A program made the position numbers and the translations under genes. From an uncultured Acidobacteriota bacterium (lineage in GTDB: Bacteria > Acidobacteriota > Thermoanaerobaculia > UBA5066), in the NCBI GenBank assembly GCA_963779415.1, contig CAVZYA010000002.1, forward strand, positions 608,001 through 672,000: a stretch of 64,000 nt of DNA, in the 5' to 3' direction. The notes beneath the pieces were generated by a model. The model was not told where the DNA came from. It saw only the letters and a program-made list of their open reading frames with translations, and made no database searches. Position 1 is the stretch's first letter. Each line of letters opens with the position of its first letter. Shown piece by piece: positions 1,653-55,350 of the stretch.

Positions 1653-3822
1653 TCAGGCGGCCGGCCACTCGAGAACGAAACGGCAGCCGCGGGGGACATT
1701 CTCCTCTACGCGGACCCGGCCCGAGTGCTCGGCCGCGATCCGGGCCGTGATCGCGAGGCCGAGGCCGGAGCCGCGCTCCTTCGTCGAGAAGGTCGGGTCG
1801 AAGACGCGCTCCCGGTTCTCCGGCGGTATCCCAGGCCCGTCGTCCGCGACCGAAAGCTCCGCACGCCCCCGGACGACCCCCGCCTCGATCCGGATGCGAC
1901 CCTCCGGGTGGCGTCGCCGCCACCGCGTTGTCGACGAGGTTCACGAGGGCGCGCTTGATCTGCTCGGCGTCGGCCCGCACCTCCGGCAGCCCCTCCGGCA
2001 CCTCCGCGTCGACCGTCACGCCGGGCTTCAGGTCGCCGTAGAGCTTCACGACCTGGGCGACGACGGCCGAGAGGTCGGTCGGGGCGAGGGTCGCGGCGGG
2101 AAGCCGGGCGAACCGGCCGAACGAGTCGACCAGCCCCGAGAGGGTGCCGACCTCGTCCACGATCGTGGAGGCACCCTCCTCGACGATCGACTTCAGCTCG
2201 GCGGCTCCGGCGTCCGGCGACGTGCACGCGGCGGCGCGCCGGCGCATCCGCTCGGCCGCGAGGCGGATCGGCGTGAGCGGGTTCCGGATCTCGTGCGCCA
2301 TCTTTCGCGCCGCCTCCTCCCATGCCGCGGCGCGCTCCGCGCGAACGAGGGCCGTCGTGTCCTCGAGCGTGACGACCCACGAGGCCGGCTCGTCGGGCTT
2401 GGCCGGGACCCTCGCCACGCGGGCGTCGAGAACCCGGCCGGAGAGGGTGAAGGTCGCCTCGCGCGCCCCCCGCTCGCCCCGCGCGCGGGCGAGGAAGCGG
2501 GCCAGCGGCGCGAGGATGGGGGCGGCGAGGAGGGAGTCGAGCGACGGCTCGTCGGCGGCGCCGGGCGACTCGAGGAGGCGCCGCGCGGTGTCGTTGATCG
2601 CCAGGAGGGTCCCGTCCTCCGCGAAGGCGAGGACGCCGGCCTCGAGGTGGGCGAGGATCGTCGCGACGCGCCTCCGCTCGCCGTCGAGACGGCGGTTCGA
2701 GGTCGAAAGCTCATCGTTCGCGCGGACGAGCTGTCCGCGGCTCTCGCCCAGCTCCGTCGTCATCGCGTTGAAGGCTCCGGAGAGCGCCGCGATCTCGTCC
2801 CCCCCTTCCACTTCGACGCGGGCGCCGAAGTCTCCGGCCCCGACGCGCCGGGCCGACGCCGCGAGAGCCGCGATCGGGCGCGTGACGCGCCGGGCGAGGA
2901 CGAGGCCGACCCAGACCGCCGCGAGAAGGACGAGGAACGCGAGGAGGAGAAAGAGGAGAACCTGGATCGCGGCGAGCGAAGCCCTCTCGGCCGAGAGCAT
3001 CGCGTAGGCCGAGGTGGCCTCGGAGAGGCGTCGTACCGCCGTGGCATCCTCGGGAGGGAGATACGTCCCGACGAGGAGAAGCCCTCCCGGCACCGCGACG
3101 ATCGTCCGCCCCGTCCGCCCGCCGCCCGCCGTCTCCTCGACGCGGCGGGACGAGCCGAGTTCCCGGGCGTCCGCGAGCCATTCGGGATCCGGCTCCTTCA
3201 CGTCGCGCACCGGCCAGCGCGGCGCGCTCACGGCGACGGCGGGGCTCCCCGGCGGGGCGGCAGCGGGGCGCCACTCGATCAGGTCGACCCCGGAGTCCTC
3301 CCGCGCGGCGGCGAGGAGAGCGACGAGTTCGGAATTGGTCCGCGCCGCGGCGAGGCGTGGGGCGAGCCGCTCGGCCGTCCTCGCTTCGAGGCCGGCGGTC
3401 CGCTTCCGGAGAATCTCCACGACGTCCCGCCCGGAGCGGACGGTCTCTTCCACGGCGGGCGCGAACCACTGTTCGACGCTTCGCTGGAGGAGACCCGTCG
3501 TCGGGAGGAGGAGCAGGACGATCGGGAGGAGGGCGAGACCGACGTTCGTCGCCACGATCCGGACGCGGAACCGCGAGCCGAAGACGCCCCGCCGGGCCTC
3601 GAGGACCAGCCGGACGGCAGCCCGGACGAGGACGAAGAGGAGGACGAGAATGAGGATGACGACGATGTAGAAGAGGACGAAGAGGACGACGCGGTTCGTG
3701 GCGGCCGCCGGCGTCAGCGCCCGTGTCCGGAGGACGAGGGCATAGAGGCCCGCGAGGGCGGCGCCGAGGCTCAGGAAGACGGCCGCGAGGATCCGGTTGT
3801 CGCGGGACCAGCGAACGCTCAT
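1653..3822 (-). CDS. NtrY-like membrane sensor histidine kinase (HAMP-PAS-HisKA-HATPase); one frameshift near 1905
   Basis: TM helices, HAMP (DEIAALSGAFNAM), H-box AHEIRNPLTPI, N-box NLVDNA; G1/G2 boxes (DDGPGI, TKERGSGLGL) continue in another frame to TGA at 1653. Confidence 0.88.
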
Positions 3823-4394
3823 CGGGCGTCCTTCGGCGGCCAGTCGAAGATTCCGGAACGGACCCAGTCGGTCTCCACCGTCGTCGGAACGACGCCGAGC
3901 GCCACGCCGCGCGCATAGGCGCACTTGACGCGGACGACGAGCCGCTTGCCTTCGAGATGCGAGCCCATGATGAAGAGGGGGAGCCCGGGGACCTCCGAGA
4001 GGGCCGCGAGGGCGTCGGCCTTCGAGGCGACGACCTTCGACCCGAGGAGGCGCCCGTCCAGCCGGCGCTCCACGAGGAAGTCGCCCGAGACCGGGCGGAA
4101 GGTGGCGGTCACTTCGTACTGCCGCTCGTCCTTCAGGCCGTCCCACCAGAGGTTCCGGAAGGCGAAGAGGCGGACGCGCCAGAGGACGGTCGTGGCGAGC
4201 CCCGAGACGAGCCGCTCCTCGACGTCGCGCGGCAGGCCGGGAGAGAGCTTCGCCGAGACGTGCAGCTCGAGCCCGTTCACCCAGGTCGAGACGCCGGGGA
4301 GGTCCGTGGGGCCCTGCGGCTCGCCCCCCGTGGCGAATCCGGCCAGAGCGAGCGCGGTGGCGAAGAGGAGGGCGAAAAGGGGGCGCGCAGCCAC
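3819..4394 (-). CDS. DUF4390-like exported protein
   Basis: Signal peptide, RLVSGLATTV.W.VRL...R.LWWD pattern, position directly upstream of ntrY with stop/start overlap. Confidence 0.7.
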   Translation of the reverse strand: MAARPLFALLFATALALAGFATGGEPQGPTDLPGVSTWVNGLELHVSAKLSPGLPRDVEERLVSGLATTVLWRVRLFAFRNLWWDGLKDERQYEVTATFRPVSGDFLVERRLDGRLLGSKVVASKADALAALSEVPGLPLFIMGSHLEGKRLVVRVKCAYARGVALGVVPTTVETDWVRSGIFDWPPKDAR

Positions 4395-9647: not shown

Positions 9648-9652
9648 CGTGG

Positions 9653-9934: not shown

Positions 9935-10203
9935 CAGCGTCTCCCGAAGAGGCCGCGGACGGCCTGAAGCGCCCTCCAGCCGGCCGAGCCGTGCAGGTTC
10001 CTGACGTACGTCTCCCGCTCGTTCAGCCGCCCGCGGACGGCGGCGAAATCCAGCTTCGAAAGCGCCAGCTCCTGCCGGAGCCGCCGGATCTCCTCTTCCG
10101 CGCTCCTGCGCGCCGTGCGGGCCAGGTCGCGTTCGGCGAGCGCCTCCTCGAGGCGCACCTCGAGAGCGGCGAGATCGCTTTCGAGGTTCCGCGCGTCTTC
10201 CAA
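9931..10203 (-). CDS. Small coiled-coil protein with C-terminal amphipathic helix
   Basis: 90 aa heptad-rich sequence ending in SAGWRALQAVRGLFGRRW; stop overlaps the next start. Confidence 0.65.
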   Translation of the reverse strand: MEDARNLESDLAALEVRLEEALAERDLARTARRSAEEEIRRLRQELALSKLDFAAVRGRLNERETYVRNLHGSAGWRALQAVRGLFGRRW

Positions 10204-10234
10204 GCGGATTCGAGTCTACCCTTCCGCCGCGCCG

Positions 10235-15505: not shown

Positions 15506-16339
15506 ATGGTTCGAATGGTCGCCGCGCCCCCGGTCTACGACTCCGCCCGCCACGACCTCCGCTTCGTCGAGGAGGCGCGTGACCTCTGGCGCTACCGGCA
15601 CCTGGTGGTCGAGCTCGTCCGGCGCGACATCACCGTCCGCTACAAACGTTCCGTTCTCGGGGTCGGCTGGACCATGCTGAGCCCTCTCCTGCAGATGCTC
15701 ACGATGACCTGGGTCTTTTCGGTCGTCCTCCGGCAGGACATCCGGAACTATCCCGTCTACTTCCTTTCGGGCCTGATCTTCTGGCAGTTTTTCGCGCAGG
15801 CGACCGGCCACGTGGCCTCCCTGCCCGTCGAAGCCCTCGAGATGGGCAAACGGATCTTCCTGCCGCGGTCCGCCTTCGTGCTGGCGGCGGTGGGCGTGGC
15901 CCTCGTTCACATGGTCCTGAGCCTCGTTCCTCTTCTCGTCATCGTCATCTGGACGGGGTCACCCGTCCATCTGACCTGGCTTTTTCTCCCCGTGGCCCTT
16001 GTCATCGGCGCCGCCTTCACGACGGGCGTGGGACTGCTGGTCTTCACCCTCGCGTCCCGCTTCGTCGATGTGAAGGAGATGTACATCATCGTCCTTCAAC
16101 TCTGGTTCTTCGTGACGCCGATCGTCTACTCGCCGAAGCTCGTCCCGGAGAGGTACCAGTTCGTGATCCGGTACAACCCGGCCACGTACCTCGTCGATCT
16201 CTTCCGAGCGCCGCTTTACAACGGCTGGCTTCCCGGCGTAAACACGCTGGCGTTCGCCATCATCGCCTCGCTCGTGAGCCTTTTTCTGGGCTGGCTTTTC
16301 TACTCGCAGAAGATGGAGGAGTATGGATCGCGGTTCTGA
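15506..16339 (+). CDS. wzm: ABC-2 polysaccharide export permease
   Basis: LWRYRHLV..LVRRDITVRYKRSVLG..W..LSPL, FFVTPIVY, YNP, six TM. Confidence 0.92.
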   Translation: MVRMVAAPPVYDSARHDLRFVEEARDLWRYRHLVVELVRRDITVRYKRSVLGVGWTMLSPLLQMLTMTWVFSVVLRQDIRNYPVYFLSGLIFWQFFAQATGHVASLPVEALEMGKRIFLPRSAFVLAAVGVALVHMVLSLVPLLVIVIWTGSPVHLTWLFLPVALVIGAAFTTGVGLLVFTLASRFVDVKEMYIIVLQLWFFVTPIVYSPKLVPERYQFVIRYNPATYLVDLFRAPLYNGWLPGVNTLAFAIIASLVSLFLGWLFYSQKMEEYGSRF

Positions 16340-17075
16340 GCCCGTGATCGAACTGCACGACGTCGGCGTTCGCTATCGTGTACCCAAAGAGGCCATCGCG
16401 TCCCTGAAGGAGTACGCGATCCGGAAGCTCCAGGGCCGCATCGAGCACGGTGAGTTTCGAGCCCTTCGGGGAGTCAATCTGACGATACTTCCCGGCGAGC
16501 GCGTCGGCGTCGTCGGCCCGAACGGCGCCGGCAAGAGCTCGCTCTTCAAGGTGATCGCCCGGGTGCGTCGGCCGAGCGAGGGACGGGTCGTCGTCCGGGG
16601 CGCCGTGGCGCCTCTGCTGGAGCTGGGATTCGGATTCCACGGGGAGCTGACGGGCCGCGAAAACGTCGTGCTGCACGGCACGCTGATGGGGTTCTCGCGG
16701 CGGGAGATGCTGGAGAGAATGGACCGGATCGCCGAATTCGCGGAACTCGAGTCGTTCCTGGACACCCCCATCCGGAACTATTCGAGCGGCATGGTGGCCC
16801 GCCTCGGGTTCGCGGTCGCGACGGACGTGGATCCCGACATTCTCCTGGTCGACGAGGCGCTCGCCGTGGGCGACGAGAGATTCAAGGCGAAATGCCAGGA
16901 GCGGATGGCGTCCTTCCGGGAAACAGGCCGGACGTTTCTGGTCGTCTCCCACGCGCTCGCGGAGGTCCGGCGCGTCTGCAATCGAGCGGTCTGGATTCTG
17001 CAGGGCGAGGCCGTCATGGACGGCCCGGCCGGCGACGTCTGCGACGCTTACCACGAGTGGGCCCAGCGGGGATGA
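16323..17075 (+). CDS. wzt: Polysaccharide export ATPase without C-terminal carbohydrate-binding domain
   Basis: GPNGAGKS, LTGRENV, YSSGMVARLGFAVA, LLVDEALAVGD; only 250 aa. Confidence 0.92.
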   Translation: MDRGSEPVIELHDVGVRYRVPKEAIASLKEYAIRKLQGRIEHGEFRALRGVNLTILPGERVGVVGPNGAGKSSLFKVIARVRRPSEGRVVVRGAVAPLLELGFGFHGELTGRENVVLHGTLMGFSRREMLERMDRIAEFAELESFLDTPIRNYSSGMVARLGFAVATDVDPDILLVDEALAVGDERFKAKCQERMASFRETGRTFLVVSHALAEVRRVCNRAVWILQGEAVMDGPAGDVCDAYHEWAQRG

Positions 17076-18202
17076 CGGCGCGGCTCAAGGTTCTCGTCGT
17101 GGCCGGAACCCGCCCGGAGGCGATCAAGATGGCGCCGGTCGTCAGGCGGCTGCGCGCGGATACTTCCCGTTTCGACGTCACGTTCTGCGTCACCGCGCAG
17201 CACCGGGAGATGCTCGATCAGGTCGTGGCGCTGTTCGGTCTTCGGCCGGACGTGGATCTCGATCTGATGCGTCCGGACCAGTCCCTGAACGAGCTGTCGT
17301 CCCGTGTCTTCACGGCGATGGACGCCTGCCTGCTCGAGAACCGGCCCGACTGGGTTCTGGTGCAGGGAGACACGACGACGGCGCTCTGTACGGCCCTGGC
17401 CGCCTTCCACCGGCACCTCCGTGTCGGACACGTCGAGGCCGGGCTTCGAACGGGTGATCTCGACGCCCCGTTCCCGGAAGAACTGAATCGGCGGGTCGTC
17501 GACCTTCTTGCCACGGCGCTCTTCGCCCCGACGCCGCGTTCGGTGGAGGAGCTGGAGCGCGAGGGGGCCCGGAGATCGGCGATTCACCTGACGGGGAACA
17601 CGGTGGTCGACGCCCTCGAGGCCATCGTGGCCCAGGAGGGCGCTGTCGAGACGGAGAACGTCGTCCTGGTGACGGTGCATCGTCGCGAGAGCTTCGGCGC
17701 GCCGCTCGAAGAGGTCGTGGAGGCCATCGCCGCCCTGGCGCGTCTCTTCCCGGCCGTACGGTTCATCCACGTCGAGCATCCCAATCCGAACGTCCGGGAC
17801 ATCGTCCGGCGGAACGCCGGCATCGGCAACGTGCAGATCGTTCCGCCGACCGACTACCGCACTCTCGTCCGGCTGCTCCGGCGCTGCCGTCTCGTCCTGA
17901 CGGATTCCGGAGGAATCCAGGAAGAGGCGCCGACGTTCGGAAAGCCGGTCCTCGTCATGAGACAGAAGACGGAGCGTCGCGAGGGCATCGAGGCGGGGAG
18001 CGCCCGGCTCGTCGGGACCGACAAGGAGGTCATCGTGCGGGAGGTCTCGCGCCTTCTGAACGATCCGGCGGCCTATCGCGCGATGAGCGCCTGCGTGAAC
18101 CCGTACGGCGACGGCCGGGCCTCCGAGCGGATCGCGCGAATTCTGCTCGGCGAGGACTTCGAGCCATTTCGACCCCTCCCGCTCAGGGACGGTGGCGCGT
18201 GA
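17072..18202 (+). CDS. wecB: UDP-N-acetylglucosamine 2-epimerase (non-hydrolysing; WecB/MnaA)
   Basis: GTRPEAIKMAPV, QHREML, VQGDTTT, HVEAGLR, TDSGGIQEEAP, NPYGDG. Confidence 0.96.
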   Translation: MTARLKVLVVAGTRPEAIKMAPVVRRLRADTSRFDVTFCVTAQHREMLDQVVALFGLRPDVDLDLMRPDQSLNELSSRVFTAMDACLLENRPDWVLVQGDTTTALCTALAAFHRHLRVGHVEAGLRTGDLDAPFPEELNRRVVDLLATALFAPTPRSVEELEREGARRSAIHLTGNTVVDALEAIVAQEGAVETENVVLVTVHRRESFGAPLEEVVEAIAALARLFPAVRFIHVEHPNPNVRDIVRRNAGIGNVQIVPPTDYRTLVRLLRRCRLVLTDSGGIQEEAPTFGKPVLVMRQKTERREGIEAGSARLVGTDKEVIVREVSRLLNDPAAYRAMSACVNPYGDGRASERIARILLGEDFEPFRPLPLRDGGA

Positions 18203-23709: not shown

Positions 23710-24720
23710 TCAGTAGAGGAGGGGGATGTGGAAGGCGGTCACGAGGAAAGGCGCCATCTGCCAACGGGTGACGTTGCCTGCGGGGCAGTAGTTGCCGCCG
23801 CCACAGCCGGCGGTGACTCCTCCCGCATAGATGTAGTGGATGAACTTGCAGCCCGGGTCCGTCGGCGGGACGTCGCCGAAGAGGGAGTTGCCGCCCGAGG
23901 TGCAGTTGTAGGTGCCCACGCTCGGGACGGTCCCGCTGACGGGAACGGCCGCACCCGAGCCGGCCATGGCCGTAGCGAGGAAGACGGCCATCTGCCAGCG
24001 GTTGACGTTGCTGGCGGGACAGTAATTGCCGCCGCCGCAGCCCGTCGTGATCCCCTGGGCATAGATGTAATGGATGAACTTGCAGCCCGGGTCCGTCGGC
24101 GCAACGTCGCCGAAGAGGGAATGGCCGCCCGAGGTGCAATCGTAGGAGCCCACGCTCGGGACGGTCCCGCTCGTCGGCACGCTGCCGGTCGGGCCGACCA
24201 TGGCGGTGGCGAGGAAGACGGCCATCTGCCAGCGATTGACGTTGCCGGCGGAGCAGTAATTGCCTCCACCGCAGCCTGATGTGACTCCGTTGTGGAGGAG
24301 GGTTTCGACGAAGCGGTAGGCGCCGTCGGCGACGGGCACGTCTGTGAAGCTCATGCCGATGTGGAGCGTCCAGCCCTTCGTGCCACCCGTGCTGAGAGTC
24401 TCGAGGAAGGTGGCATCCCAGTGGGTGGCGGGGCGGGTTACGGGGTTAGAGACGGAGAGGCGATAGGAGGGCCCGCCGGCCGAGAAGCTGTCGGCGGTGG
24501 CTCCGGGGGCGATGGTCCCGTATCCGGCCGCCGTGTCGAGCAGGGTGTACGTCGCACCGGCAGGACCCGTGAAGGCGGAAGCCGTGCCTGTGAGGGCGAG
24601 CGGGGAGGAGCCGATGTTCTTCCAGGAGGGGTTTGCGAGAACCGTCTCGCCCGGCTCGAGAACGCCGTTGACGTTGGAGATCGTCGCGCCCGTGGCATGA
24701 GCGTCCTCGACGAGGCCGGC
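23710..24720 (-). repeat. Shared ~1 kb 3' cassette (EPGET domain + 3 SLH-like repeats), copy 1
   Basis: Near-identical DNA at 54370, 57287 and 61460 (e.g. cccgcatagatgtagtggatgaac). Confidence 0.9.
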
Positions 24721-26793
24721 GGGCTGGACGCCGACGCCCGTGGACGTAATCGTCAGGATCCCGGTCCCCGTGGACGTCTGGCCATCAGGGTTCGTGACGC
24801 TGACGTTTTTGGCTCCCGTGGTGGCCCCCGTCGTATTCAGGCTCAGCGTGACGTGCGTCGCATCGGTGTACGTGACGCTGTTGACGGCGACGCCGCCCGT
24901 GACCGCCGCCCCGATCCGCAGGCGGCACGGTTCGCCCGACATGCTGGAGGGCGTGTCGTAGAAGCCGGAGCCCGAAGACGACGTACCAGTGACGACGACG
25001 CTGACGCTGGACTGACCCGTCGCCACGGAGGAAGGGCTGGCGGAAGCGGGGGTCGCCGGGGGCGGCCCCTTCAGCTCGGCGAAGCGCGAACCGTACTGGT
25101 TGGCGACCGGGACGTACTCCTGGATCGTCCAGATGCTCTGGTCGTTGCACGGGTCGAGGCTCGTGAAGGAGAAGTCACCCCACCGCCGGCCGTGGCTGCC
25201 TCCGGTGTCCCAGCTCGGGTTGTACGCGTTGTTCGCCTGCGCGTAGACGTTGATCGACTGGAGCGTGCCGAGCGTATCGCCGGAGAGCCGCCCGGCCGTC
25301 CCCCCGCTGATGTAGGTGTTGTTCCCCGCGATCGTGAACCCTGCCGCGGCATGCCCCTGCCCGTTCGGGACGATCGTGCCGTAGCTGAAGAAGTTCGGGT
25401 TCAACGAGGCGACGTCGCAGACGATGCCGGCCTGGCGGATGGAAGGCGTCGATCCGGTCGGGATTCCCTGGATCTCCCACCAGTAGACGGCGTCCCGGTC
25501 TGCCGTCCCGCTGGCCACGCCGACGCAGTTTCCTCCGGAGACGGTGACCCCGACGGGCATCGCGGTCCAGAGACTCCCGGCTCGATACGTCGCGATCATT
25601 GGGCGGTTGTCGATCGCGTCGATATTTCCATTGGTTCCACCGGTATTGCCTTTATGGGGCTGGGTGATCGGGCTCCCCTGGTTCGCCGTGGCGATCGCGA
25701 CAGGCGACGAAAGCGTGGGACTGGCGCTCCCTGGACTGCTGACCCGGACGAGATCGAGCTGGCTCCACGAGAAGTTGTCGTTTCCGAGGAGCCACCCCTC
25801 GGTCGCCGCCGGATCGGCGTTGTCGACGCCGTGCGGCGTCCACGGGAAGGTTGCGTAGCCCGTGCTAGCGAATCCCGTGACGTGGATGGGGCCGGAACCG
25901 AGGACCGAGCTTTTCTGGACGACGAAGATGTCGGAACCCTTGTACGTCGCGGTCTCCAGGCTCGTGCCGCAGAACTGGTTGACGCCGATGTAGATCCCGT
26001 TCGCGTCGATTCCGGGCACCGGATAATCCGCGAGGCAGTTCGTGTGCGTCCCGATTCCGGACTGGAAGTAGAAGAAGTGCCAGACCGTGCTCGGCGTGAT
26101 CGTCGCCGAGTTGCTGACGGCGAGAAGGACCCGGTTGTTCGGGAACTTCACGTCGATGATGAAGAGAAACCAGCGCTGGCTGAGCCGGTCGTACCGGACG
26201 TGGGAGTCGCTGGTCCCGCTCGAGCGGACAGACGTGAAGAAGTTGTTCGGCGACGTGTTCAGGACGCCGTCGGGAAGGCCCGTCGCCTTGCTGTAGGTGA
26301 CGATGTTGCAGTTCTCGAAGACGACGAACTGAGTCGGACCGACGGCCCCCATGGTGTCCGGGGGCCAGGCGCTCGGGTTTGCGGCCGTCGGTGAATCTCC
26401 CGTCACGCCCACGGTCTGAGGCAGCGCCAGCTCGCCCCCCGTGGCGATCTCGGGCGACTGCGGGCCGGTGGCGGGCCCCTGCCGGCGGTTCATTGCATCC
26501 GGATCGACTTTCTTCAGGCTCGTGTCGGCCCGCCCCGGGAAGAGGTCGAGGGTCATCTGGGGGGCGACCTCACCCAGCCGCATCTGGCGGGCCATGATCT
26601 CGCCCGTCGTCTCGCTGACCGCGGGGAGTCCCGGAATGGATATTCCCTGAATCTGCTGGCCGTTCGGCGGCGCGGCAGAGGCGGGTTGCGCAATTCCAGC
26701 AAGTGCGGCTGCGAGAATCGCTCCCCTCGCGAAGCCGGCCGATCGGACGAATCGACTCAACGGTCGCCCGGAAGGCGAGTCGGTCATCATCAT
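23710..26793 (-). CDS. Secreted surface protein: PPD...WGD beta-domain, Ig/IPT-like domain, EPGET domain, three Cys-rich SLH-like repeats
   Basis: Signal peptide; PPDTMGAVGP...RWGDFS; C-terminal F.DV...GCGGGNYC...V.RWQMA.FL x3. Confidence 0.85.
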   Translation of the reverse strand: MMMTDSPSGRPLSRFVRSAGFARGAILAAALAGIAQPASAAPPNGQQIQGISIPGLPAVSETTGEIMARQMRLGEVAPQMTLDLFPGRADTSLKKVDPDAMNRRQGPATGPQSPEIATGGELALPQTVGVTGDSPTAANPSAWPPDTMGAVGPTQFVVFENCNIVTYSKATGLPDGVLNTSPNNFFTSVRSSGTSDSHVRYDRLSQRWFLFIIDVKFPNNRVLLAVSNSATITPSTVWHFFYFQSGIGTHTNCLADYPVPGIDANGIYIGVNQFCGTSLETATYKGSDIFVVQKSSVLGSGPIHVTGFASTGYATFPWTPHGVDNADPAATEGWLLGNDNFSWSQLDLVRVSSPGSASPTLSSPVAIATANQGSPITQPHKGNTGGTNGNIDAIDNRPMIATYRAGSLWTAMPVGVTVSGGNCVGVASGTADRDAVYWWEIQGIPTGSTPSIRQAGIVCDVASLNPNFFSYGTIVPNGQGHAAAGFTIAGNNTYISGGTAGRLSGDTLGTLQSINVYAQANNAYNPSWDTGGSHGRRWGDFSFTSLDPCNDQSIWTIQEYVPVANQYGSRFAELKGPPPATPASASPSSVATGQSSVSVVVTGTSSSGSGFYDTPSSMSGEPCRLRIGAAVTGGVAVNSVTYTDATHVTLSLNTTGATTGAKNVSVTNPDGQTSTGTGILTITSTGVGVQPAGLVEDAHATGATISNVNGVLEPGETVLANPSWKNIGSSPLALTGTASAFTGPAGATYTLLDTAAGYGTIAPGATADSFSAGGPSYRLSVSNPVTRPATHWDATFLETLSTGGTKGWTLHIGMSFTDVPVADGAYRFVETLLHNGVTSGCGGGNYCSAGNVNRWQMAVFLATAMVGPTGSVPTSGTVPSVGSYDCTSGGHSLFGDVAPTDPGCKFIHYIYAQGITTGCGGGNYCPASNVNRWQMAVFLATAMAGSGAAVPVSGTVPSVGTYNCTSGGNSLFGDVPPTDPGCKFIHYIYAGGVTAGCGGGNYCPAGNVTRWQMAPFLVTAFHIPLLY

Positions 26794-31400: not shown

Positions 31401-33759
31401 ACGACACCGGGTACTCCGGCGCCGCCGACTATGTCCAGGTGGCCTACTCGACGAATGGCTCCAACTACTTCACAGTCGGACCCCAGATCACGCGGTACGA
31501 CGGGACGACGGGGTGGGTCCAGTACGAGGTCCCCCTGACGGGCGTCTCGAGTCCCAACCGTCTTGATCGTCCTCTATCGGATTCAGCTACTTCGGCAACG
31601 ACATTCACGTCGACGACGTGCAGCTTCTCAACGGCGCGGCGCCGTCGCCGCCCGTCGTCGACAACCCGAGCCTCCTCTGTGATGCGGTTCCGGGCTCCCT
31701 GGTCGCCGGCTTCGTGACCGACGCCAACACGGCGCTCGGCCTCGCGGGTGCGCAGGTCGCTCGCGACCTGGGCGGGGTGGCCATCACCATGCCGGCCTCG
31801 GAGGACCCGAACGTGGGCGCGGGCTTCTACTACATGTTCTCTTCGGCGGCCATGCCGACGGCGCCAAACGGCCCGTCGACCCGGACGTTCACGGCGAGCA
31901 AGACCGGCTACGGTTCTGTTCAGAAGTCCGTGAACCTCGTACCCAACACCGTCAACCGCCTCGACTTCGCCCTCCCGTCGGCCTCGCTCAGCTTCGCCGG
32001 CTGGCCGTTCGACCTCAACAGCCGCCTGTACCCGGACGGAATGCCGCCGTGGGACAAGCAGCACATCTTCTCCGTCATGAACAGCGGTGGCCTTGACGCC
32101 AACGTCAAGTTCAGCACGATAGCTCTGACTCCGGGTTGGACGCCGCCCCGCATGTGGCCTGCGTTCGCCCCGGAACCCCTCAGTCCAACCAGAACCAAGA
32201 GTTCGATCGGGCGGGCTGCGGCCGGACGGCACCCTTCAACTGCTACCAGGACCCGGTACACCGGACTGGCCGGTCCTCTGGCCGGCATCCCGGCGTTCGG
32301 AGTGGATCTCAACGCTTCGAACTTCGTCACCTGGCCGGACGCTTCTGTTCCGGGCACCTGGACCATCATCGCGCCCGAGCCCGGCAGCTCGTACTTCGGC
32401 GGTGACTTCCTGAACGGCGATTTCTCCAAGCTCTGGGTCGTGGATTACGCGCTGAACCAGCTCAGCACGCTGGACACCACGACCGGCGCGAAAACGGTCG
32501 TCGGCCCGATGACTCCAAACTCCGGCGAGTCATGGACCGGTCTCAAGAGCTCCTCGGATGGCAATGTTTACGCCGCGGCCACGACCTGCGCTTCGTCGAC
32601 GCTCTACACGGTCGACCCGGCGACAGGCCACGCGACGGCGATCGGTCCGATCACCAACGGCGGGTGCGTCATCGACATCGCCATCAACAACGCAGGCGAG
32701 ATCTATGGTGTCGACCTCGTCTCGGACAACCTGCTGAAGATCAACCCCGCCACCGGTGCCGGCACGGTCGTCGGCCCGCTGGGAATAGACGCCAACTACG
32801 CACAGGGGATGTCTTTCGAGAAGGACAGCGGAATTCTCTACTGGGCTGCGTTCAACAACGGAGCCTTCCAGGGCGAGCTTCGCACCATCGACACGGCGAC
32901 GGGTGCCAGCTTCCTGATTGGTCCCTTCCCCGGCGGTGCCGAGGTGGACGCCTTTGCCATCGCCTCCGGCGGTGGCGTGACGCTCCCGTGGGTCACCCTC
33001 ACTCCGACCGAGGGCGTGGTCCCGGCCAATGGCCAACTCGACATCCTCACCGAGTTCTTCCCTGAGGGTGTGCCGCCGGCCAACTTCGGCCTCTATCGGG
33101 CCCAGGTCAAGTCCACCAACGACACGCCGTCCCCCCTGCCGACGATCTCCGTCTACTTCACCAAGGCCTTCTGGGACGTTCCGCGCGGCTCCTTCGCCGA
33201 TGCCTTCATTCACGGCCTGGCCGGCGCGCGCGTCACGAAAGGCTGCGGCGGCGGGAACTTCTGCCCGAACGACCCCGTCAGCCGTGCCGAGATGGCCATC
33301 ATGGTGGTCCGTGGCATCCACGGTCCTGACTTCGTACCACCCCCCGCTGTCGGAATCTTCGCGGACGTGGTGATCTCCGACACCGACAACACCGCCGACT
33401 ACATCGAGCAGCTCTACACCGACGGCGTCGTCGCCGGCTGCGCAGTCGGCCCCCCGCTTCTCTACTGCCCCAACAGTCTCGTCAACCGTGCCCAGATGGC
33501 CGTCTTCATCTCCGCCGGCATCCTGCTTCCGCCGGTCAATCCTCCGACGGGCTACTTCACGGACATGGCCGGATATCACTGGGCCGATGGCTATGCCGAG
33601 GCTCTCTTCAACGCGGGAATCACCGCAGGGTGCGGCTCCCATATCTTCTGCCCGAGCACCAACATCACCCGTGCTCAGCTCTCCGTGTGGCTTGTGACCG
33701 GACTCGGTATTCCTTACTACACCCACCCGATCGGCCCGGACAAGCCGGCCGGCAAGTAA
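28425..33759 (+). CDS. Giant secreted surface protein (~1770 aa reconstructed): PPD...WGD domain, carboxypeptidase-regulatory-like, adhesin/MAM-like and beta-propeller domains, three SLH-like repeats; interrupted by indels and one in-frame TAG
   Basis: ORFs 28425, 29775, 31394 and 31618 read as one protein; PPDTTGDVGP...RWGDYS; ENFDGAFPPLGW; FWDVP...SRAEMA, NRAQMA, TRAQLS. Confidence 0.8.
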
Positions 33760-33890: not shown

Positions 33891-36800
33891 GTGGCTACCG
33901 GATCGCACCGTATCGTCCTTGCCGGGTACTACGGATTCGGGAATGCCGGTGACGAGGCGATTCTGGCGTCTCTTCTCGCGGGACTCCGGAGCCGCGATCC
34001 CGGGATCCGGGCCACCGTCCTGTCGGGGAATCCGGCCGTCACGGTAGCCGCTCACGGAGTCTCCGCCGTGGCGTGGCCGGACATCGAAGGGCTCTCGGAC
34101 GCGATCGAGAACAGCGACATCGTCGTCGTCGGGGGGGGCGGTCTTTTCCACGACTATTGGGGAGTCGACCCGGACACCCTCTTGACGGACCGGGGATGGG
34201 GAATTCCGTCGTACGCGGCGCCCGTCCTGCTCGCGGCCCTTCACGAGACCCCTGCGCTGATCGTCGGCGTCGGGGTCGGCCCGCTCGATTCGTTGGCCGG
34301 CAAGAAGCTGACCCGGCAGATCTGCGAGCTGGCGGAGGGCGTCACCGTCAGGGATGCCGCATCGGCCGAGCTTCTCGCGGCGATCGGCGTCGCCCGGAAC
34401 CGGGTGGAGGTGACGGCCGACCCGGCATTCACGTTCACTCCGACGGCGTCCGATCGGGAGCGGGCCGCGCAGCGGGTGCCCGAGGGAGACGGACCTCTCG
34501 TCGCCCTGGCCCTCCGGGCCTGGGACATCGGCGTGCACTCGCCGCGCTGGGAGGGCGAGGTCGCGGCGGCGGCCGACGATCTTGTCCGGACGGCCGGGGC
34601 GCGGATCCTGTTCGTCCCGTTCCAGGACCTGCCGTCCGCCAAAGGAGAACGACGCCGCCGTCGCGGAGAGAGTCGCGGCGCGGATGACAGCCGGGCACCG
34701 CGCAGAAGTCGTGCGGCCTCCGCTGAGCGCCGGGGAGACGGCCGCTCTTCTCGCCCGGTGCGACGCCGTCGTCGGCATGCGGCTCCACGCCCTGATCTTC
34801 GCCCTGAGCGGAGGGGTTCCGGCGGTGGCCCTTTCCTACGACCCGAAGGTGGAAGCCACGATGTCGGCGCTGGGCCTCGAAGAGGAGACGATTCGGCTGG
34901 CCGACCTCGAGCGGACGTCGCTGGTCTCCGCCGTGACCAGAGTGCTCGAAGGCCGGGAAGAGCTGGGACGACGGCTCGCTCCGCTCCTCGAAAAGGCCCG
35001 GGCGGCGGCGACGAAGAACGTGGACCGGATCTGGGAGCGGCTCGAGCGGCCGACGGTGCGCTCCGCCCCCCGCGCGGGACGGGAACTCTTCGTGAAGGGG
35101 ATCCGGGCGCAGATCCGCGCGATCGCCCTGGCGAGGGCTGCCGCGGAGACGGACCGCTCCCGGATCACCCTACTTGAAAACGCAGTGGCTGAAGCGCAGC
35201 GCCGCGTGGTCGAAGCGGCTGAAGCGCAGCGCCGCACGGCGGAGGACGCCGCCTTGTTTCGGGAACAGCTCGCCATGGCGAAGGCGGAGGCGGCGGAAAC
35301 GCAGCGTCAAATAGCCGATTCGGCGGCTGAAGTGGAACAGGTCAGGGCGGGGGCGGCCGTCCTGGAGCGCGAGAACCTGCGGCTGATCGAGTCCCTGGAC
35401 AGTGCCCGCCGCGAGGTCCAGGCCTGGAAGGCGGCCCACGACGACGCCCGACACTCCCTGGAGGGGGTCCGTGAAGAGTTGAGCCGCTGGCACGCCTCGC
35501 GCCTCTTCCGGACGGGAACTCTCTACTGGCGCCTCCGGGGAATGCTGACGGGCCGGTCGTCGGGGTCGGCTCCGGCCGTGGGGACGAACCCGGCGGAGCG
35601 GTCCCGCGACGTTCCGGACCCGGCCCCGGCGTCTCTCGCGGCCGGTTCGGAGCCGCAGCCCCCGTCCGAGCCGGCCTGGCGTCCGGAGCGCCCGAGCGGC
35701 GTCGAATCCCTGCCCCGAGGGACGTACGACGTCATCGTCTTTTCGATCATCGACTGGGAATTCCGCTTCCAGCGTCCGCAACAGCTTGCAAGTCAGTTCG
35801 GACGGAAGGGGCACCGGGTCCTCTACGTCTCGTGTTCCCGGTTCCTGCCGGACGGAGGCCCGGCCTGGCAGACGGTCCGGCAGGCGGAGAACGTCGCCGA
35901 GGTGCGGATCCGGTCGGCCCGGGCTCTCGACATCTACGGGGGAAAGCTGGAAGGGCGGGACCTCGACGTTCTCGAGGAGGCGTTCTCGGTCCTGGCGCGG
36001 GACCTCGCAATCGCCGACGCCGTTTGCAAGGTGGACATTCCATTCTGGACTCCGCTCGTCCTGCGGCTTCGGGAGCGATTCGGGTGGCGCGTGGTCTATG
36101 ACTGCATGGACGAATGGAACAACTTCCCCGGATTCAAGGAGCCGGTCCTTGCGGCCGAAGCGACGCTCGTCCGCGACGCGGACGTGACCCTCGTCTCCGC
36201 CGACCGGCTGCTGGCGAAGTGGAGCGAGCACGACACGGCCCTTGATGGTGCGCAACGCCGTGGACCTCGATCACTACACCCGGCTCTACGGTCCGAACGA
36301 TCTCCTCGGGAAGGTTTCGCATCCGGTCATCGGCTATTACGGCGCTCTCGCGTCGTGGGTCGACGTCCCGTTGCTCAAGAAGGTGGCCGAGACCTTTCCG
36401 GACGGGACCATCGTCCTCGCGGGAGGCCACTTCGACGTCGATCTCGGCCCGATCGCTTCGACTCGAGAACGTTCGCCTCCTCGGGCAGCGGCCCTACGAG
36501 GAGATGCCGCTCCTTCTCTGGCACTTCGATGCCTGCATCATTCCGTTCCTCGTGAACGACATCACCGAGGCGACGAACCCCGTGAAGTTCTACGAGTACA
36601 TCTCGCAGGGGAAGCCGGTGGTCGTTCCCGACCTCACGGAGCTGCGCCCGTTCTCGGAAGTCTGCTACCTCGCGCGGGACCACGACGACTTCGTCGCGAA
36701 GCTCCGCCTCGCCCTGGCGGAGGCGCCGGACGACCCGCGGCGGAAAAAGAGGCAGGAACTCGCCGCGGAGAACGACTGGTCGGCCCGCGCGGAGACGATC

Positions 36801-37616
36801 GACCGCGCCGTCCGGGAGTCCTTCCCGCTCGTCTCGGTCGTCGTCGTCACGTACGGAGGGCTGGAGCTGACGAAGGAATGCCTCCGGTCGCTTCTCTTCG
36901 CGGAGACGTGGCCCCGTCTGGAAGTGATCGTCGTCGACAACGGCTCGTCGGACGGGACACCGGCGTTCCTCCGGGAGTTCGCCGGGACGGATGCGCGGAT
37001 GAAGACGATCCTCAACGCCACGAACCGCGGCTTTGCAGCGGCCAACAACCAGGGGATCGCCATGTCGGCTGGGGAGATCGTCGTCCTTCTCAACAACGAC
37101 ACGGTCGTCCCGCAGGGCCTGATGGGACGCCTCGTGGCCCACCTCAAGCGGGACGCCGGGCTCGGGATGGTCTGCCCGACGACGAACTTCTGCGGAAACG
37201 AGGCCAAGGTCGACCCGGACTACTCGGACATTTCCGGCCTGCCCGCATTCGCGGCGAAGCGGGCGGCGGAATACTCCGGAGTGGTCTTCGACATCCCGAT
37301 CGCCGCGATGTACTGCGTCGCGCTCCGTCGCGAGGTCCTGGAGAAGGTCGGGCCGCTCGACGAGGCGTTCGGCATCGGGATGTTCGAGGACGACGACTAC
37401 GCCCTCAGGATCCGGGAGGCCGGGCTTCGGGTCGTCTGCGCGGAGGACGCGTACGTCCACCACGTCGGACAGGGATCTTTCCGGAAACTCCCTCGCGAGG
37501 AGTACGAGAAGCTCTGGCGCGAGAACCGCGAAAAGTTCGAGCGGAAATGGGGACGGCCCTGGAAGCCGCACCGTGTCCGGGAAGGAGCCTCTCCGGTCGT
37601 CTCGAGGATAGAGTGA
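33891..37616 (+). CDS. CsaB-like polysaccharide pyruvyltransferase - coiled coil - GT4 - GT2 multidomain protein (~1240 aa after three +1 frameshifts near 34640, 36235, 36460)
   Basis: IVLAGYYGFGNAGDEAIL, VGGGGLFHD, VTVRD..S, TADP, GMRLHALI, LSYDPKV (CsaB); DWEFRFQRPQQL, TNPVKFYEY (GT4); VSVVVVTY, VDNGS, LLNNDT, FEDDDY (GT2); each break falls inside a domain. Confidence 0.8.
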
Positions 37617-43764: not shown

Positions 43765-44517
43765 CGGCGACAGCCCGGCGCCTGCCTTCCAGAGTTCGCG
43801 GCGCAGTCGCCAGAGACCACGGAGCTGCTGCAGCACGATGAGAGGGAGCTTCGAAACGTAGAAGATCTGTGTGGCCCCGGCCTTGCGCGCGTAATGTGAG
43901 ACAGGCACCTCTGCGATGCGGTACCCTGCCTTGTGGCAGCGGACGACGAACTCCGCCGTGAAGAACGCGAAGTGACGCACCCGCGGGGCGAGCCTCGTGA
44001 CCGCCTCGCGACGCATCAGCCGGAACCCCGTATCCATGTCGGTATACGGTACCTGAAAGAGGCAGCGCAGCAGGAGGTTGAGTCCCCGTGAGAGAAGAAT
44101 CCGGTAGTGCGGGTCCATGCGGGGACTCTTCTTCCCCAGAATGACGTCGTGGCTGGCCATCAGGGGGACGAGGCGCCAGAAGTCGATCGCGGCGAATTGG
44201 TAGTCCGAGTCGACCAGGAAGACCCAGTCGCGCTCCGCGAGTGCGACGGCATCCTTGACGGCAGCGAGGTAGCCCTTGCGTCTTTCTCCTGTGTAGATCC
44301 GGATCGGCAAGGTGCCGCCGAGCCGGGACACCACCATCTTGGTGTCGTCCGTAGAGCCATCCTCGGCGACGATCATCTCGAACGGAACCTTCCCGTTCAG
44401 TTCGTCGAAATAGTTCCTGACGGTTTGCTCGATGATCATGGCCTCGTTGAAAACCGGGAAAACCACGGAGATACCGCTCCCGATGGCTGCCGGGTCGAGG
44501 CGAGGATCGAGGGCCAC
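43717..44517 (-). CDS. GT2 polyprenol-phosphate glycosyltransferase (DPM1/GtrB-like)
   Basis: ISVVFPVFNE, EDGSTDDT, VDSDYQF, DMDTGFRL, EVPVSHYARKAG. Confidence 0.88.
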   Translation of the reverse strand: MALDPRLDPAAIGSGISVVFPVFNEAMIIEQTVRNYFDELNGKVPFEMIVAEDGSTDDTKMVVSRLGGTLPIRIYTGERRKGYLAAVKDAVALAERDWVFLVDSDYQFAAIDFWRLVPLMASHDVILGKKSPRMDPHYRILLSRGLNLLLRCLFQVPYTDMDTGFRLMRREAVTRLAPRVRHFAFFTAEFVVRCHKAGYRIAEVPVSHYARKAGATQIFYVSKLPLIVLQQLRGLWRLRRELWKAGAGLSPSPDGTAPTDSTHRGN

Positions 44518-44527
44518 GTGGCGGGCG

Positions 44528-44555
44528 ACTGTAGCAGCGTGAAGGTCGGTGTCAA
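44528..44555 (-). promoter_or_regulatory. Sigma-70-type promoter TTGACA-16-TACAGT
   Basis: Consensus -35 and TGn-extended -10 ten bases before GTG 44517. Confidence 0.65.
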
Positions 44556-46571: not shown

Positions 46572-48946
46572 CTATGGCGTGCGGCGAGCACGGAAGGCGA
46601 GCCCGGCCATGACGAGGAGGGCGGTTGCGGAGAGGGCGGTCAGAGCGGCTCCGAGGCGAAACGACGCCGGGGCGTACCGGAAGCGGACGGTGTGCGTGCC
46701 CGGGCCGAGCGGGACCCCCCGGAAGATGTAGTCGGCCCGGAGGAGAGGGGCCGGCCGGCCGTCCACGAGCGCGGTCCAGCCGGGGTAGTGAGTCTCCGAG
46801 ACGACGAGCAGGGCGTTCGACCCGACTTCGGCATCGACGGACGTCTCGCCGGACTCGGACCGGATTCCGGTGACGCGCATCTGTCCGGGTGTGGTCGTCC
46901 CCGCCCTCTGGCCAGGCGGGGGCGGTGTCCACGACGGCCCGGACGGCCGGGTCGAAGCCGGGCTGCTCGATCCGCTCGAGGGCGGCGCGGTCGTCCGGGA
47001 TCGTTTCGACTCCCTCCGAGGGAACGAGAAAAGCTCTCGGAAGCGACCGGACGTTCTCGAAGACGGAGACGGCTCCCTCTTTCCGGATCAGCCGGAAGCG
47101 GTCGGGGCGGGAGAGGAGGCGCTCGGCGCTTCCGTTGTAGGAATTTGCGACGAGATACTTGACGTTCATCAGGTCGAGGGACCGGTTGTTCGCCGAGATG
47201 ATCTGCTCGGATCTGAGGATTGGGCGAGAGGGATCCTCCGCGGCGTTCCGGTCAGCGGGGAGAGGAATTCCGACGTCCGCCTCAGGACGTAGAAAGAGCC
47301 CGTAGGAGCCTCGAATCCGAACGCGGTCTCGTCGCTTGGCGGCGCCGTCCCGTCCACGACGGCGATTCGATGGACCGAAGAGTCGGTCTCGCGGAGAAAA
47401 CGGTAGAGGGAGGGCTCGGGGAAGACGGCCTGCCGCGGGAAGAACGGAACGTTCCCGTACGCAAAGGGGATGAGGTCGAAAAGGACGATCAGGGACGCGC
47501 TGACGCCGAGGGCCCGCTCACGGCCCGGCGGACCGAGGAGAGCCCACGCGAGCCAGCCAGATGAGATGACGGCGAAGACCAGCGACGAGACGAGGCCGCA
47601 CGGCCCGGCGAGGATGGGAGGTTTCCCGGCGAAATGGAAGACAAGGGTGACGGTGGCCGCGATCAGAAGAAGCGCAGGGACAAATAGGGCGAGCCGTCGG
47701 ACCCTTTGCCTCACCAGCTGGTCGGTTGTCTTCTGGAGAGCGGTCAGCCCGAGACCCGCGAGGATGGCGATCGCGAAGTCGACGAGGAGGATGAGGCGAA
47801 AGGGATGCAGGGACCTGATGACGGGGATCGCGTGGTAGACCCAGAGAGCAGGAGGGAACCCGAAGGCGGTCAGGAAGGCCACGAGGAAAAGGCCGACGAA
47901 AAAAAGCGCTTCGCGCCGCCGGTTTCCCGTGAGAGCCAGCGGGACGAGGAGCAGAGGAAGGAGGCCCGCATATCCCGAGTGCTCCGGAATGAAAACCCCG
48001 ACCGGGCTCGGGTTCGTCGTGGCGTCGCGGGAGAGGAACATGACCAATTGCCGAAGTGGGATGCCGCCCCAAGGCGCGCAGTCTGTCTGACGCGAAAGCC
48101 GCGGAACCCACTCGAGAAACGGAACGATGTGAACGGCGGCGAGCCCGAGGGCGAGGAGCCCGGCAGCGGAGAGGGCGAGGAGGAAACGGGACCGCCCTCC
48201 CGGAGCCGCCCCTTCCGGCATGGGTGAAACCAGCCGGAACACGGCCCAGGCCGCGGTCGCCGCGAGAACGTAGACCGCGATCTCGGCGTGGCCGGCCAGG
48301 ATCGGAAGGGGAAACGCGAGGGCGGCAAGGACGATCCGGAGAAGAGTCGGGCGAGTTCTGATGGCCTCGACGGCCAGGAAGCAGAGGGGAAGGTAGATCG
48401 CGGTGTCGGACTGACACCACCCTTGCCACGAGACCAGGAACCCCGAAAGGGAAAAGACGGCCCCGGAAACGACCGCGCCCCCCGTCGAAGCGCCGAGCCG
48501 ACGGGCGAGGAGGGCTGCGAGGAGGAAAGCGACGAACATCCGGAAGGGGAACGCCACGGCCCAGAGGGTCTTCAGCGGAAGGAGGGTGCCGAGGAGGAAG
48601 GGCGGGTAGAAGACTGCCGAATCCGAATCCGCCGCGAGAGGCACTCCTGCAAAGGCGCGGGGATTCCAGAGAGGGAGATGGCCGGAGCGGAAGATCTCGT
48701 GGACGAGCTTTCTGGTCGGGTACTTGTCGACGACGAGATCCCCCATCTCGGCGTGCCGAAGGTGAAGGGCGGGGCCGGCACGCCAGGAATCCCAGAGAGG
48801 GAAGTTCGTCACGACCTCGGCCGGCAGGGGAATCCGGCCGAAGAGAAGCGGCCAGAAGAGGAGAAGCGCGGCGAATCCGGCGGCGAGACAAAGGATCCAG
48901 GGTGCGGTCTGGATCGGAAGCCCGTCCGGACAGGTTCCTCCGTCAT
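46572..48946 (-). CDS. YfhO-like GT-C glycosyltransferase, tandem copy B (frameshifts near 48914, 47200, 46900)
   Basis: Collinear with 48943..51339; PLWNP..FAGVP, MNVKY, PRAFLV, YPGW.A.VDG. Confidence 0.8.
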
Positions 48947-54369: not shown

Positions 54370-55350
54370 TCAGTTCCAGAGCTGAAGGTTGAAGGCGGTC
54401 ACGAGGAAAGGCGCCATCTGCCAGCGGGTGACGTTGCCGGCGGGGCAGTACTTGCCGCCGCCGCAGCCTGCGGTGACCCCTCCCGCATAGATGTAGTGGA
54501 TGAACTTGCAGCCCCCGTCCGTCGGCGGGACGTCGCTGAAGAGGGAACTGCCGCCCAAGGTGCAGTTGTAGGGACCGACCAAAGGAACGGTTCCGCTGGC
54601 CGGAACTGCAGCGCCTGAGCCGGCCATGGCCGTAGCGAGGAAAACGGCCATCTGCCAGCGGTTGACGAGGCTGGAGGGACAGTAATTGCCGCCGCCGCAG
54701 CCGCCGGTGATTCCCCGAGCGTAGATGTAGTGGATGGACGGGCAGGCGCCGTCGGTGGGTGGCACGTCTCCGAAAAGCGAGATACCGCCGCTCGTGCAGT
54801 CATAGGGTCCGACACCGGAAACGGTGCCCGACACGGGAACCGGCACGCCGGGCCCGAGGAGAGAGGTGGCGAGGAAGACGGCCATCTGCCAGCGGGTGAC
54901 GTTTCCGGCGGGGCAGTAATTGCCGCCGCCGCAGCCTGCGGTGATGCCGTTGTGGAAGATGTTCTCGACGAAGCGGTAGGCGCCGTCGGAAGTCGGCACG
55001 TCAGTGAAGCTGTTTCCCACGTGCAGCGTCCAGCTCTTCGAAAAGCCGGTGCTCAACGTCTCGAGGAAGGTGGCGTCCCAGTGGGCGGCGGGACGGGTCG
55101 TCGGGGCGCTGACGCCGACGATGTAGCAGTTCCCCGTGGCCGTCCGGCAGTCCGTGGAAACTCCGTTCGGGATCGTTCCGTACGACGCCGCGCCGTCCGT
55201 CAGCGTGTAGTTGGCCCCCGGCGGGCCCGTGAACGCGGAGGCGGTTCCTGTCAGCGACAGCGGTGCGCCGGAGACGTTCTTCCATGACGGCGCGACAACC
55301 ACGGTCTCGCCCGGCTCGAGGACGCCATTTCCGTTCGGGTCCTCCGAGAG
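54370..55350 (-). repeat. Shared 3' cassette, copy 2
   Basis: Aligns with 23710, 57287 and 61460 cassettes. Confidence 0.88.

Follow-up and report, generated by a model that had tools for sequence, protein, structure and literature searches.

A CsaB-like pyruvyltransferase joined through a predicted coiled coil to two glycosyltransferase domains in Acidobacteriota: a putative terminator-ruler-polymerase

The DNA analyzed here (the window) is a 64,000-nucleotide stretch from an uncultured bacterium of the Acidobacteriota (Thermoanaerobaculia, UBA5066; assembly GCA_963779415.1, here G000; contig CAVZYA010000002.1, positions 608,001 to 672,000 of the forward strand). At 33891-37616 on its plus strand lies a gene whose product would join, from the N- to the C-terminus, a CsaB-like pyruvyltransferase, a coiled coil, a conserved basic-aromatic motif, a proline-rich linker, a GT4-like glycosyltransferase (GT) domain of the GT-B fold and a GT2 domain of the GT-A fold (Table 1). 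This domain order had been claimed in a preliminary description of the window, and both the Pfam matches and the tiling of the gene on the orthologue P0001 bear it out. The N-terminal pyruvyltransferase and the C-terminal GT-B and GT2 domains are placed at opposite ends of the coil.

In the deposited sequence the gene is divided among four open pieces, whose frames are 0, 1, 2 and 0 in order; the junctions lie near 34641, 36230 and 36458, and every one of them is a +1 shift. The frames and the way in which the Pfam matches are split agree with the earlier claim that each of the three shifts falls within a domain. The first is inside PS_pyruv_trans (PF04230), with piece 1 matching profile positions 1-212/223 and piece 2 positions 230/231-280, and the other two fall within the GT-B domain. 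The GTG at 33891 corresponds to the start of P0001, whose protein begins MATGSHRIVLAGYYGFGN. In an alignment of 31 homologues the four pieces together kept 133 of the 134 invariant columns, the invariant residues of the GT-B domain included.

Table 1. Features of the gene, its shift sites, its split relatives and other genes of the window (positions are those of the window unless a locus is named).
Feature	Position	Strand	Description
Piece 1, frame 0	33891..34640	+	N-terminal ~250 residues of CsaB-like pyruvyltransferase; P0001 1-250 at 89%
Piece 2, frame 1	34642..36234	+	C-terminal end of pyruvyltransferase, coil, motif, linker, N-terminal half of GT-B; P0001 251-771 at 82%
Piece 3, frame 2	36236..36460	+	Middle of GT-B domain; P0001 775-848 at 89%
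Piece 4, frame 0	36462..37616	+	End of GT-B and GT2 (GT-A) domain; P0001 850-1233 at 89%; stop codon 37614-37616
Coiled-coil spacer (predicted), ~138 residues	35083..35496	+	Proline-free, rich in A/E/L/R/Q; homologous P0001 400-531 modelled as coil
Conserved basic-aromatic motif SRLFRTGTLYWRLRGML (SRLFRTGTLYWRLRG)	35497..35547	+	Foot of coil
Proline-rich linker	35548..35724	+	From sequence; homologous P0022 stretch has pLDDT <50
GT4-like GT-B domain	35725..~36792	+	Over pieces 2, 3 and 4; homologues match PF13692/PF13524/PF00534 here
GT2 domain PF00535 (Glycos_transf_2)	36834..37349	+	Pfam E 1.1e-26
Shift site 1	34641..34643	+	AAA; relatives have one base fewer; X4/X5 contigs omit base 34641; G004 has 1-base gap at 34639
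Shift site 2	36229..36233	+	CCCTT, one base extra; X4/X5 net -1 at 36227-36233; G004 1-base gap at 36228
Shift site 3	36457..36458	+	TT, T in relatives; X4/X5 omit base 36458; G004 1-base gap at 36457
Split pyruvyltransferase-coil-motif protein	L014 7576-9306; L016 6838-8631	-	Motif SRLWK..YWR
SLH-domain protein directly upstream	31618..33759	+	PF00395
Wzm	15515..16336	+	PF01061
Wzt, short, 243 residues	16338..17066	+	PF00005 (ABC_tran) only
UDP-GlcNAc 2-epimerase WecB	17066..18163	+	PF02350; TIGR00236 423.9 bits (cut-off 210.15)
Paralogue of C-terminal part (18205-19578), then methyltransferase segment	18205..20242	+	38% identity to query residues 360-525
Split histidine kinase	1656..3825, broken at 1910/1912	-	HAMP and HisKA in 1912-3825; HATPase_c from profile position 26 in 1656-1910
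YfhO-type membrane protein	46593..48887	-	Spread across three frames

Longer relatives of piece 2 were sought in a collection of 5.8 billion proteins, and 224 were found at E <= 1e-10. Intact homologues with this domain order, which the preliminary description had proposed to look for, were among them: the best orthologues, P0001 (1233 residues; 81%), P0002 (1239 residues; 78%) and P0003 (1214 residues; 74%), are single polypeptides in which PF04230 is N-terminal and PF00535 C-terminal. The family is large and mostly acidobacterial; by source name the homologues come from metagenome-assembled genomes of Thermoanaerobaculia, Acidobacteriota and Bryobacteraceae.

The spacer behind the pyruvyltransferase is predicted to form a parallel, in-register coiled coil of about 130-138 residues, a call that rests on composition, an AlphaFold2 helix and a dimer model, the number of chains per coil having been modelled as two. 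Two copies of P0001 385-552, modelled with a 30-row alignment, scored 0.53, compared with 0.00 for the best of three controls; of the proteins solved as pairs of one chain, 20 of 30 attained the mark for a dimer, and of those solved as single chains, 1 of 23. At least 95% of the contacts agreed between dimer runs and the pLDDT (predicted local distance difference test) score of the partner was at least 82. The contacts were heptad-spaced and in register (495-495, 506-506) over P0001 400-531. Prediction thus favors the coiled coil of about 125 residues claimed earlier, the proline-free stretch being slightly longer at about 138. Fully extended, such a coil would be roughly 20 nm long, by simple arithmetic at 1.5 Å per residue.

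A comparable layout was obtained in an AlphaFold2 model of the 1193-residue homologue P0022 (mean pLDDT 86.3; predicted template modelling score 0.59), which has a Rossmann-type domain to about residue 352, helices at 354-384, 394-468 (75 residues) and 471-481, disorder to about residue 553, and then the GT-B and GT-A domains. The proline-rich linker of the window protein, homologous to this disordered stretch, is probably disordered as well. The top Foldseek matches of the P0022 model were GT4-type enzymes of the GT-B fold, namely MshA, sucrose-phosphate synthase and GumK, with GT-A enzymes ranking next.

The length of the spacer varies within the family. Across the 31 pyruvyltransferase-type homologues, 205-357 residues lay between the end of the pyruvyltransferase and the beginning of the GT-B domain, and the longest proline-free stretch was 68-225 residues, with the catalytic domains staying conserved. 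Measured from the pyruvyltransferase to the motif, the distance was 209-227 residues in close orthologues and 380 in P0004 (1388 residues), whose spacer is about 160 residues longer than theirs, the extra stretch being visibly repeated in sequence. The motif at the foot of the coil has the consensus SR(L/V)(W/F)(R/K)x4-5YWR. A regular expression for it matched 25 of the 120 homologues listed, among them pyruvyltransferase-, methyltransferase- and sulfotransferase-type proteins, and we consider it a candidate membrane-interface or assembly motif.

The enzyme carried on the coil is not the same throughout the family. Among the 120 homologues listed, 53 had PF04230, 10 had a methyltransferase, 1 a sulfotransferase and 2 a kinase family domain; in two of the ten with a methyltransferase (P0016 and P0066) it is C-terminal. 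Scanning of 15 homologues found the pyruvyltransferase N-terminal to GT-B and GT2 in P0001, P0022, P0054 and P0004, and other heads on the same arrangement of coil, motif, linker, GT-B and GT2: Sulfotransfer_3 in P0064, a methyltransferase in P0075 and P0079, a methyltransferase with a kinase in P0088, and a GT4 domain in P0010 and P0014. A search with the methyltransferase region of P0088 ranked WbdD chains (E 2.5e-4 to 5.7e-4) above other methyltransferases.

The family also occurs in split form. Two genomes of the same taxonomic family as G000, G008 and G012, encode a separate pyruvyltransferase-coil-motif protein (577 and 598 residues, respectively) that has the motif at its C-terminus (Table 1). 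Its gene adjoins those of WecB, of a coil-motif-linker-GT-B protein and of a large protein with coil, motif, GT-B, GT2, GT4 and methyltransferase segments. Both of these neighboring glycosyltransferase proteins begin with a short coil of their own and the same motif, which hints, on the evidence of the sequences, that the split-form proteins may assemble through their coil-motif segments.

The N-terminal domain has TIGR03609 (CsaB) as by far its best NCBIfam family, profile positions 2-215 being matched in piece 1. A full-length PF04230 match was obtained with P0001 (profile 1-280, E 1.8e-39); in the window the match is divided into 1-212 and 231-280 across the first shift. The pyruvyltransferase motifs NxGD, Rxxx(S/T) and H are named in the part of Kelly et al. 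2023 (PMC10629545) used here. In the alignment N18, G20 and D21 were present in 27 of 31 rows, the remaining four being gapped, and R154, D155, S158, R297 and H299 in all 31. The gene accounts for the only PF04230 matches in G000, none being found elsewhere in the genome.

The surroundings of the gene hold both SLH-domain proteins and WecB (for the supply of UDP-N-acetylmannosamine, UDP-ManNAc), the co-occurrence typical of CsaB-type enzymes. G000 has 22 SLH matches, 11 of which lie at 631-680 kb on contig C2, around the gene, and one SLH protein is encoded directly upstream (Table 1). The orthologue in genome G022 has the same neighbor, an SLH-like open reading frame (ORF) of 822 residues. 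Five SLH proteins were seen in the window (23713-26628, 32278-33756, 54373-56622, 57290-61216 and 61463-63919), several of them with TIG/PKD or protease (S8, M12) domains. About 14-18 kb upstream of the gene are Wzm, Wzt, WecB and a paralogue of the gene's C-terminal part; in G012 some 25 kb separate the Wzm orthologue from the pyruvyltransferase gene. The paralogue has a short coil, an SRVW... motif, a proline linker and the GT-B opening IIDW.YRYQRPQQL, as in the gene itself. The methyltransferase segment behind it is matched by Pfam from profile position 47 and may mark another frame break. TagA/WecG (PF03808) was not found in G000, which is 92% complete.

All three shift sites can be read in G000 as a short homopolymer with one surplus base (AAA, CCC/TT and TT), and in each case the relatives lack that base (Table 1). 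The relatives compared were contigs from sequencing runs X4 and X5, which share about 90% identity with the window and number one per run at each site, and the same-genus genome G004, with 88.5% DNA identity over 3706 aligned bases. G004 and P0001 continue through the first site as ...LPSAKEND.... G004 has an extra base of its own at 36996, in the GT2 domain. Tracing of its frames (L009 89-3332 and 7078) gave many switches in the upstream gene, which holds the position of the SLH gene in G000, as well as a single switch within the orthologue's GT2 domain, and its assembly too looks error-prone. Five sequencing runs shared words with the window, at a share of 0.05-0.08 each, and no RNA run was listed. 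Run X1 gave zero-difference records at 34040-34190, 34720-34931 and 35511-35607, the shift sites not being among them.

Frame breaks were also counted across the whole 4.36 Mb of G000, using a codon-usage model trained on 1308 long ORFs of this genome and a seven-state Viterbi trace (six frames and non-coding). A same-strand junction at which the upstream frame remained open for >60 nt past the switch was taken as a candidate break. There were 612 of these among 2029 same-strand junctions on contigs C1-C3, or 140 per Mb (368 and 201 under stricter cut-offs), and 465 of them (76%) were +1, 146 went the other way and one had no net change. By contrast, 400 kb of the complete, single-contig genome G022, of the same order and similar G+C content, had 3 candidates among 117 junctions (7.5 per Mb). 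At least three candidate breaks within 3.7 kb occurred at 113 non-overlapping places in G000. The window has seven candidates, three of which are the gene's shift sites, with further sites at 1912, 31550, 39524 and 46885. The counting procedure was home-made and its Pfam check covered the breaks of the window, which makes the total only approximate; its robust parts are the difference from the control and the bias in direction. At about 140 breaks per Mb, any "frameshifted gene" reported from this assembly is best taken as an artefact until reads say otherwise.

Based on these observations we favor, with modest confidence, the reading that the locus holds one intact gene of about 1240 codons, in which a ruler-held pyruvyltransferase caps the product of the polymerase and the pyruvylated end is the ligand of SLH proteins. 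It is the architecture of the protein that suggests a terminator-ruler-polymerase, with the pyruvyltransferase acting as the putative cap enzyme and GT-B and GT2 as the putative polymerase. Working on the cytoplasmic side of the membrane, the two glycosyltransferases would polymerize a lipid-linked glycan, which would probably contain ManNAc from the WecB encoded nearby. The coiled coil would keep the pyruvyltransferase, which would depend on phosphoenolpyruvate (PEP), about 20 nm from the glycosyltransferases, so that a pyruvate ketal would be added solely to chains long enough to reach the enzyme and would block their further extension. The local Wzm and Wzt would be a candidate export route. 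The SLH proteins, many of which are encoded near the gene, would bind the pyruvylated end as their ligand. This much of the preliminary description, a terminator, ruler and polymerase in one polypeptide with pyruvate as the cap, has gained from the architecture, the intact orthologues, the modelled coil, the swapped heads, the split WbdD-like forms and the presence of a sole PF04230 gene in a genome with 22 SLH matches; a reading of the three +1 shifts as biology has not found support.

As to those shifts, insertion errors in the assembly are in our view the likeliest source of the three extra bases, the gene itself then being intact in the living organism, because candidate breaks are genome-wide, relatives are without the extra bases and the pieces tile the intact P0001. 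Were the shifts real mutations, the gene would be a recent, strain-specific pseudogene, which we consider improbable. The shifts are present in the deposited sequence, no same-strain read covers any of the three sites, and G004 has a break of its own in the GT2 domain. However, the tracer splits the upstream gene of G004 too, into several frame segments, and the excess of breaks in G000, about 19 times the control with 76% in one direction, indicates a technical cause. Neither do the 133 of 134 invariant residues kept, the lack of other damage, or the position of the gene as the sole pyruvyltransferase gene of a genome rich in SLH proteins suit a pseudogene. Programmed +1 ribosomal frameshifting, by which the amount of full-length protein would be tuned, would account for the shared direction of the three shifts, but no stop or known slippery context was seen on reading the sites, relatives lack the bases, and hundreds of like breaks occur in unrelated genes. 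With the orthologues also uninterrupted across the sites, we rejected this explanation as having next to no likelihood.

Given an intact gene, pyruvate might be placed on every repeat or on a lipid-linked primer, with the coil acting as a dimerizer or scaffold and chain length set in another way, such as by coupling to export. We regard this as doubtful, while still giving it serious weight. In Paenibacillus alvei CsaB requires a lipid-linked acceptor and pyruvylates the ManNAc of each repeat (PMC6801904, in part); capping is therefore not a given for an enzyme of the CsaB type. In addition, the local Wzt lacks a carbohydrate-binding module (CBM), as in Klebsiella O1/O2, in which length follows from the coupling of extension to export, and fusion by itself would unite enzymes of one pathway. 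What this account fits poorly is that the N-terminal slot before the same C-terminal part also holds, in other proteins, a WbdD-like methyltransferase-kinase or a sulfotransferase, that the predicted parallel coil is long and variable in length beyond the needs of dimerization, and that the split forms copy the layout of WbdD.

Along with the P. alvei precedent and the want of same-strain reads at the shift sites, several other observations weigh against the favored reading. P0001 scored below the equivalog cut-off of TIGR03609 (201.6 vs 213.1 bits). In the part of Kelly et al. 2024 (PMC11231755) used here, all examples of terminated O antigens have a CBM on Wzt, and no match to such a module (Wzt_C) was obtained in the window; the local Wzt without a CBM counts against full membership in the WbdD/WbbB class. 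G000 as a whole had four Wzt_C (PF14524) matches, all on contig C1 (1677774-1945717), and thus, judging from these matches, has other CBM-bearing Wzt exporters far from the locus. Linkage to Wzm is not conserved, the orthologue being about 680 kb from the gene in G022, and a conserved Wzm/Wzt linkage was not found beyond close relatives. In Klebsiella O1 terminal pyruvate is added by WbbZ without chain-length control (Kelly et al. 2023, PMC10629545, in part). Genomes G022 and G020, of another family, have an intact form of 1725 and 1727 residues with an extra GT4 domain between the pyruvyltransferase and the coil and an SLH protein upstream, so that the distal module may not always be a pure cap, or a further glycosyltransferase may act at the chain end. 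Lastly, the helical moment (Eisenberg) of the motif was 0.27-0.28, which is average against 0.30 +/- 0.15 for all 18-mers of piece 2. The amphipathic helix of the preliminary description was consequently not borne out, and we have dropped that label as the hydrophobic moment is only average.

A wider form of the terminator-ruler-polymerase reading can be put forward as speculation that is unlikely to be right in every part. A ruler-borne CsaB would both stop the wall polymer and make its single SLH-binding end, and the length of the coil, which varies rapidly, would set the distance of SLH-anchored surface or outer-membrane proteins from the peptidoglycan. The swapped heads (methyl, phospho-methyl, sulfate or sugar) would then represent an acidobacterial kit of wall glycans of set length with different ends, the split forms assembling via the shared coil and motif. 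This family is a large one in Acidobacteriota, and it offers intact orthologues for expression.

The window additionally encodes aminotransferase, acetyltransferase and YfhO-type proteins. A second YfhO-type membrane protein lies at 48952-50064 on the minus strand and a small GT2 at 43822-44529; together with the first YfhO-type protein (46593-48887) these may represent a CsbB/YfhO-type system for extracytoplasmic glycosylation. At 7797-10236 on the minus strand there is a second coil-bearing dual glycosyltransferase, with a helical N-terminus of about 180 residues followed by GT2 and GT4 and without a cap domain. It is also in three frames, broken at about 9656 and 9944.

The closest parallels come from terminator systems dependent on ABC transporters, and the comparisons made here follow parts of the published accounts. 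A coiled coil is described as a characteristic marker of these systems, whose terminators have either a fused format (O12 WbbB, O7 ORF6) or a split one (WbdD, O4 ORF7) (Kelly et al. 2024, PMC11231755). WbbB of Klebsiella pneumoniae O12 and Raoultella terrigena resembles the window protein in being a single chain with an N-terminal terminator, a coil and two C-terminal polymerizing glycosyltransferases. It differs in having a GT99 terminator that adds beta-Kdo, a GT102/GT103 polymerase and a Wzt with a CBM, where the window has a pyruvyltransferase, GT4-like and GT2 domains, a Wzt without a CBM and likely an SLH wall polymer and not an O antigen; the two are likened by architecture. ORF6 of K. 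pneumoniae O7 similarly has one or more N-terminal cap enzymes, a central coil and two C-terminal glycosyltransferases, and its orthologues occur with and without the GT modules. Its cap, however, is methyl-phosphate, added by a methyltransferase-kinase with a CBM-like domain, and both of its glycosyltransferases are GT2.

WbdD (Escherichia coli O9a; K. pneumoniae O3 and O5) has a catalytic head, a coiled-coil ruler and a C-terminal membrane-proximal segment. This layout is shared by the split proteins of 577 and 598 residues in G008 and G012, and the methyltransferase of P0088 is weakly WbdD-like and is followed by a kinase domain. Unlike the fused window protein with its pyruvyltransferase, WbdD is a protein distinct from the polymerase WbdA, and the group it adds is methyl or phospho-methyl. 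The likeness to WbbZ (K. pneumoniae O1b) and WbmX (O2c) is chemical, as these enzymes place pyruvate on the non-reducing end of a glycan exported by an ABC transporter and cause PEP-dependent premature termination in vitro. Those accounts, as far as they are used here, do not describe a coiled coil for them; the two enzymes belong to a pyruvyltransferase clade other than CsaB and are dispensable for chain-length control. Pyruvate as a ruler-borne terminator has already been raised in print for other bacteria, proteobacterial candidates for pyruvate termination with length regulation having been named without biochemical proof (Kelly et al. 2023, PMC10629545, citing Mann, Kimber and Whitfield 2019). 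Full-text literature searches, supplements aside, turned up no account of a glycosyltransferase fused through a coiled coil to a CsaB-type enzyme, and only the two Kelly papers among their results were relevant.

The putative cap enzyme itself is nearest to CsaB of P. alvei and Bacillus anthracis, with which it shares TIGR03609 as best family, the NxGD, RxxxS and H motifs, and the company of SLH proteins and a UDP-ManNAc supply. Those systems are Gram-positive and are treated, in the parts of the accounts used, without a coil or fused glycosyltransferases, and a Wzx/Wzy route is proposed in B. anthracis. The S-layer-binding polymer of B. anthracis has pyruvyl-ManNAc at its terminus only, which the model for that species leaves unexplained (Hager et al. 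2019, PMC6801904, a review used in part). A pyruvyltransferase on a coiled-coil stalk over its own polymerase would offer a concrete and testable answer to how pyruvate comes to be terminal only on an SLH-anchoring wall polymer, and, if this is true, pyruvate would join the caps proven to be placed by a ruler, which so far are methyl, phospho-methyl and Kdo.

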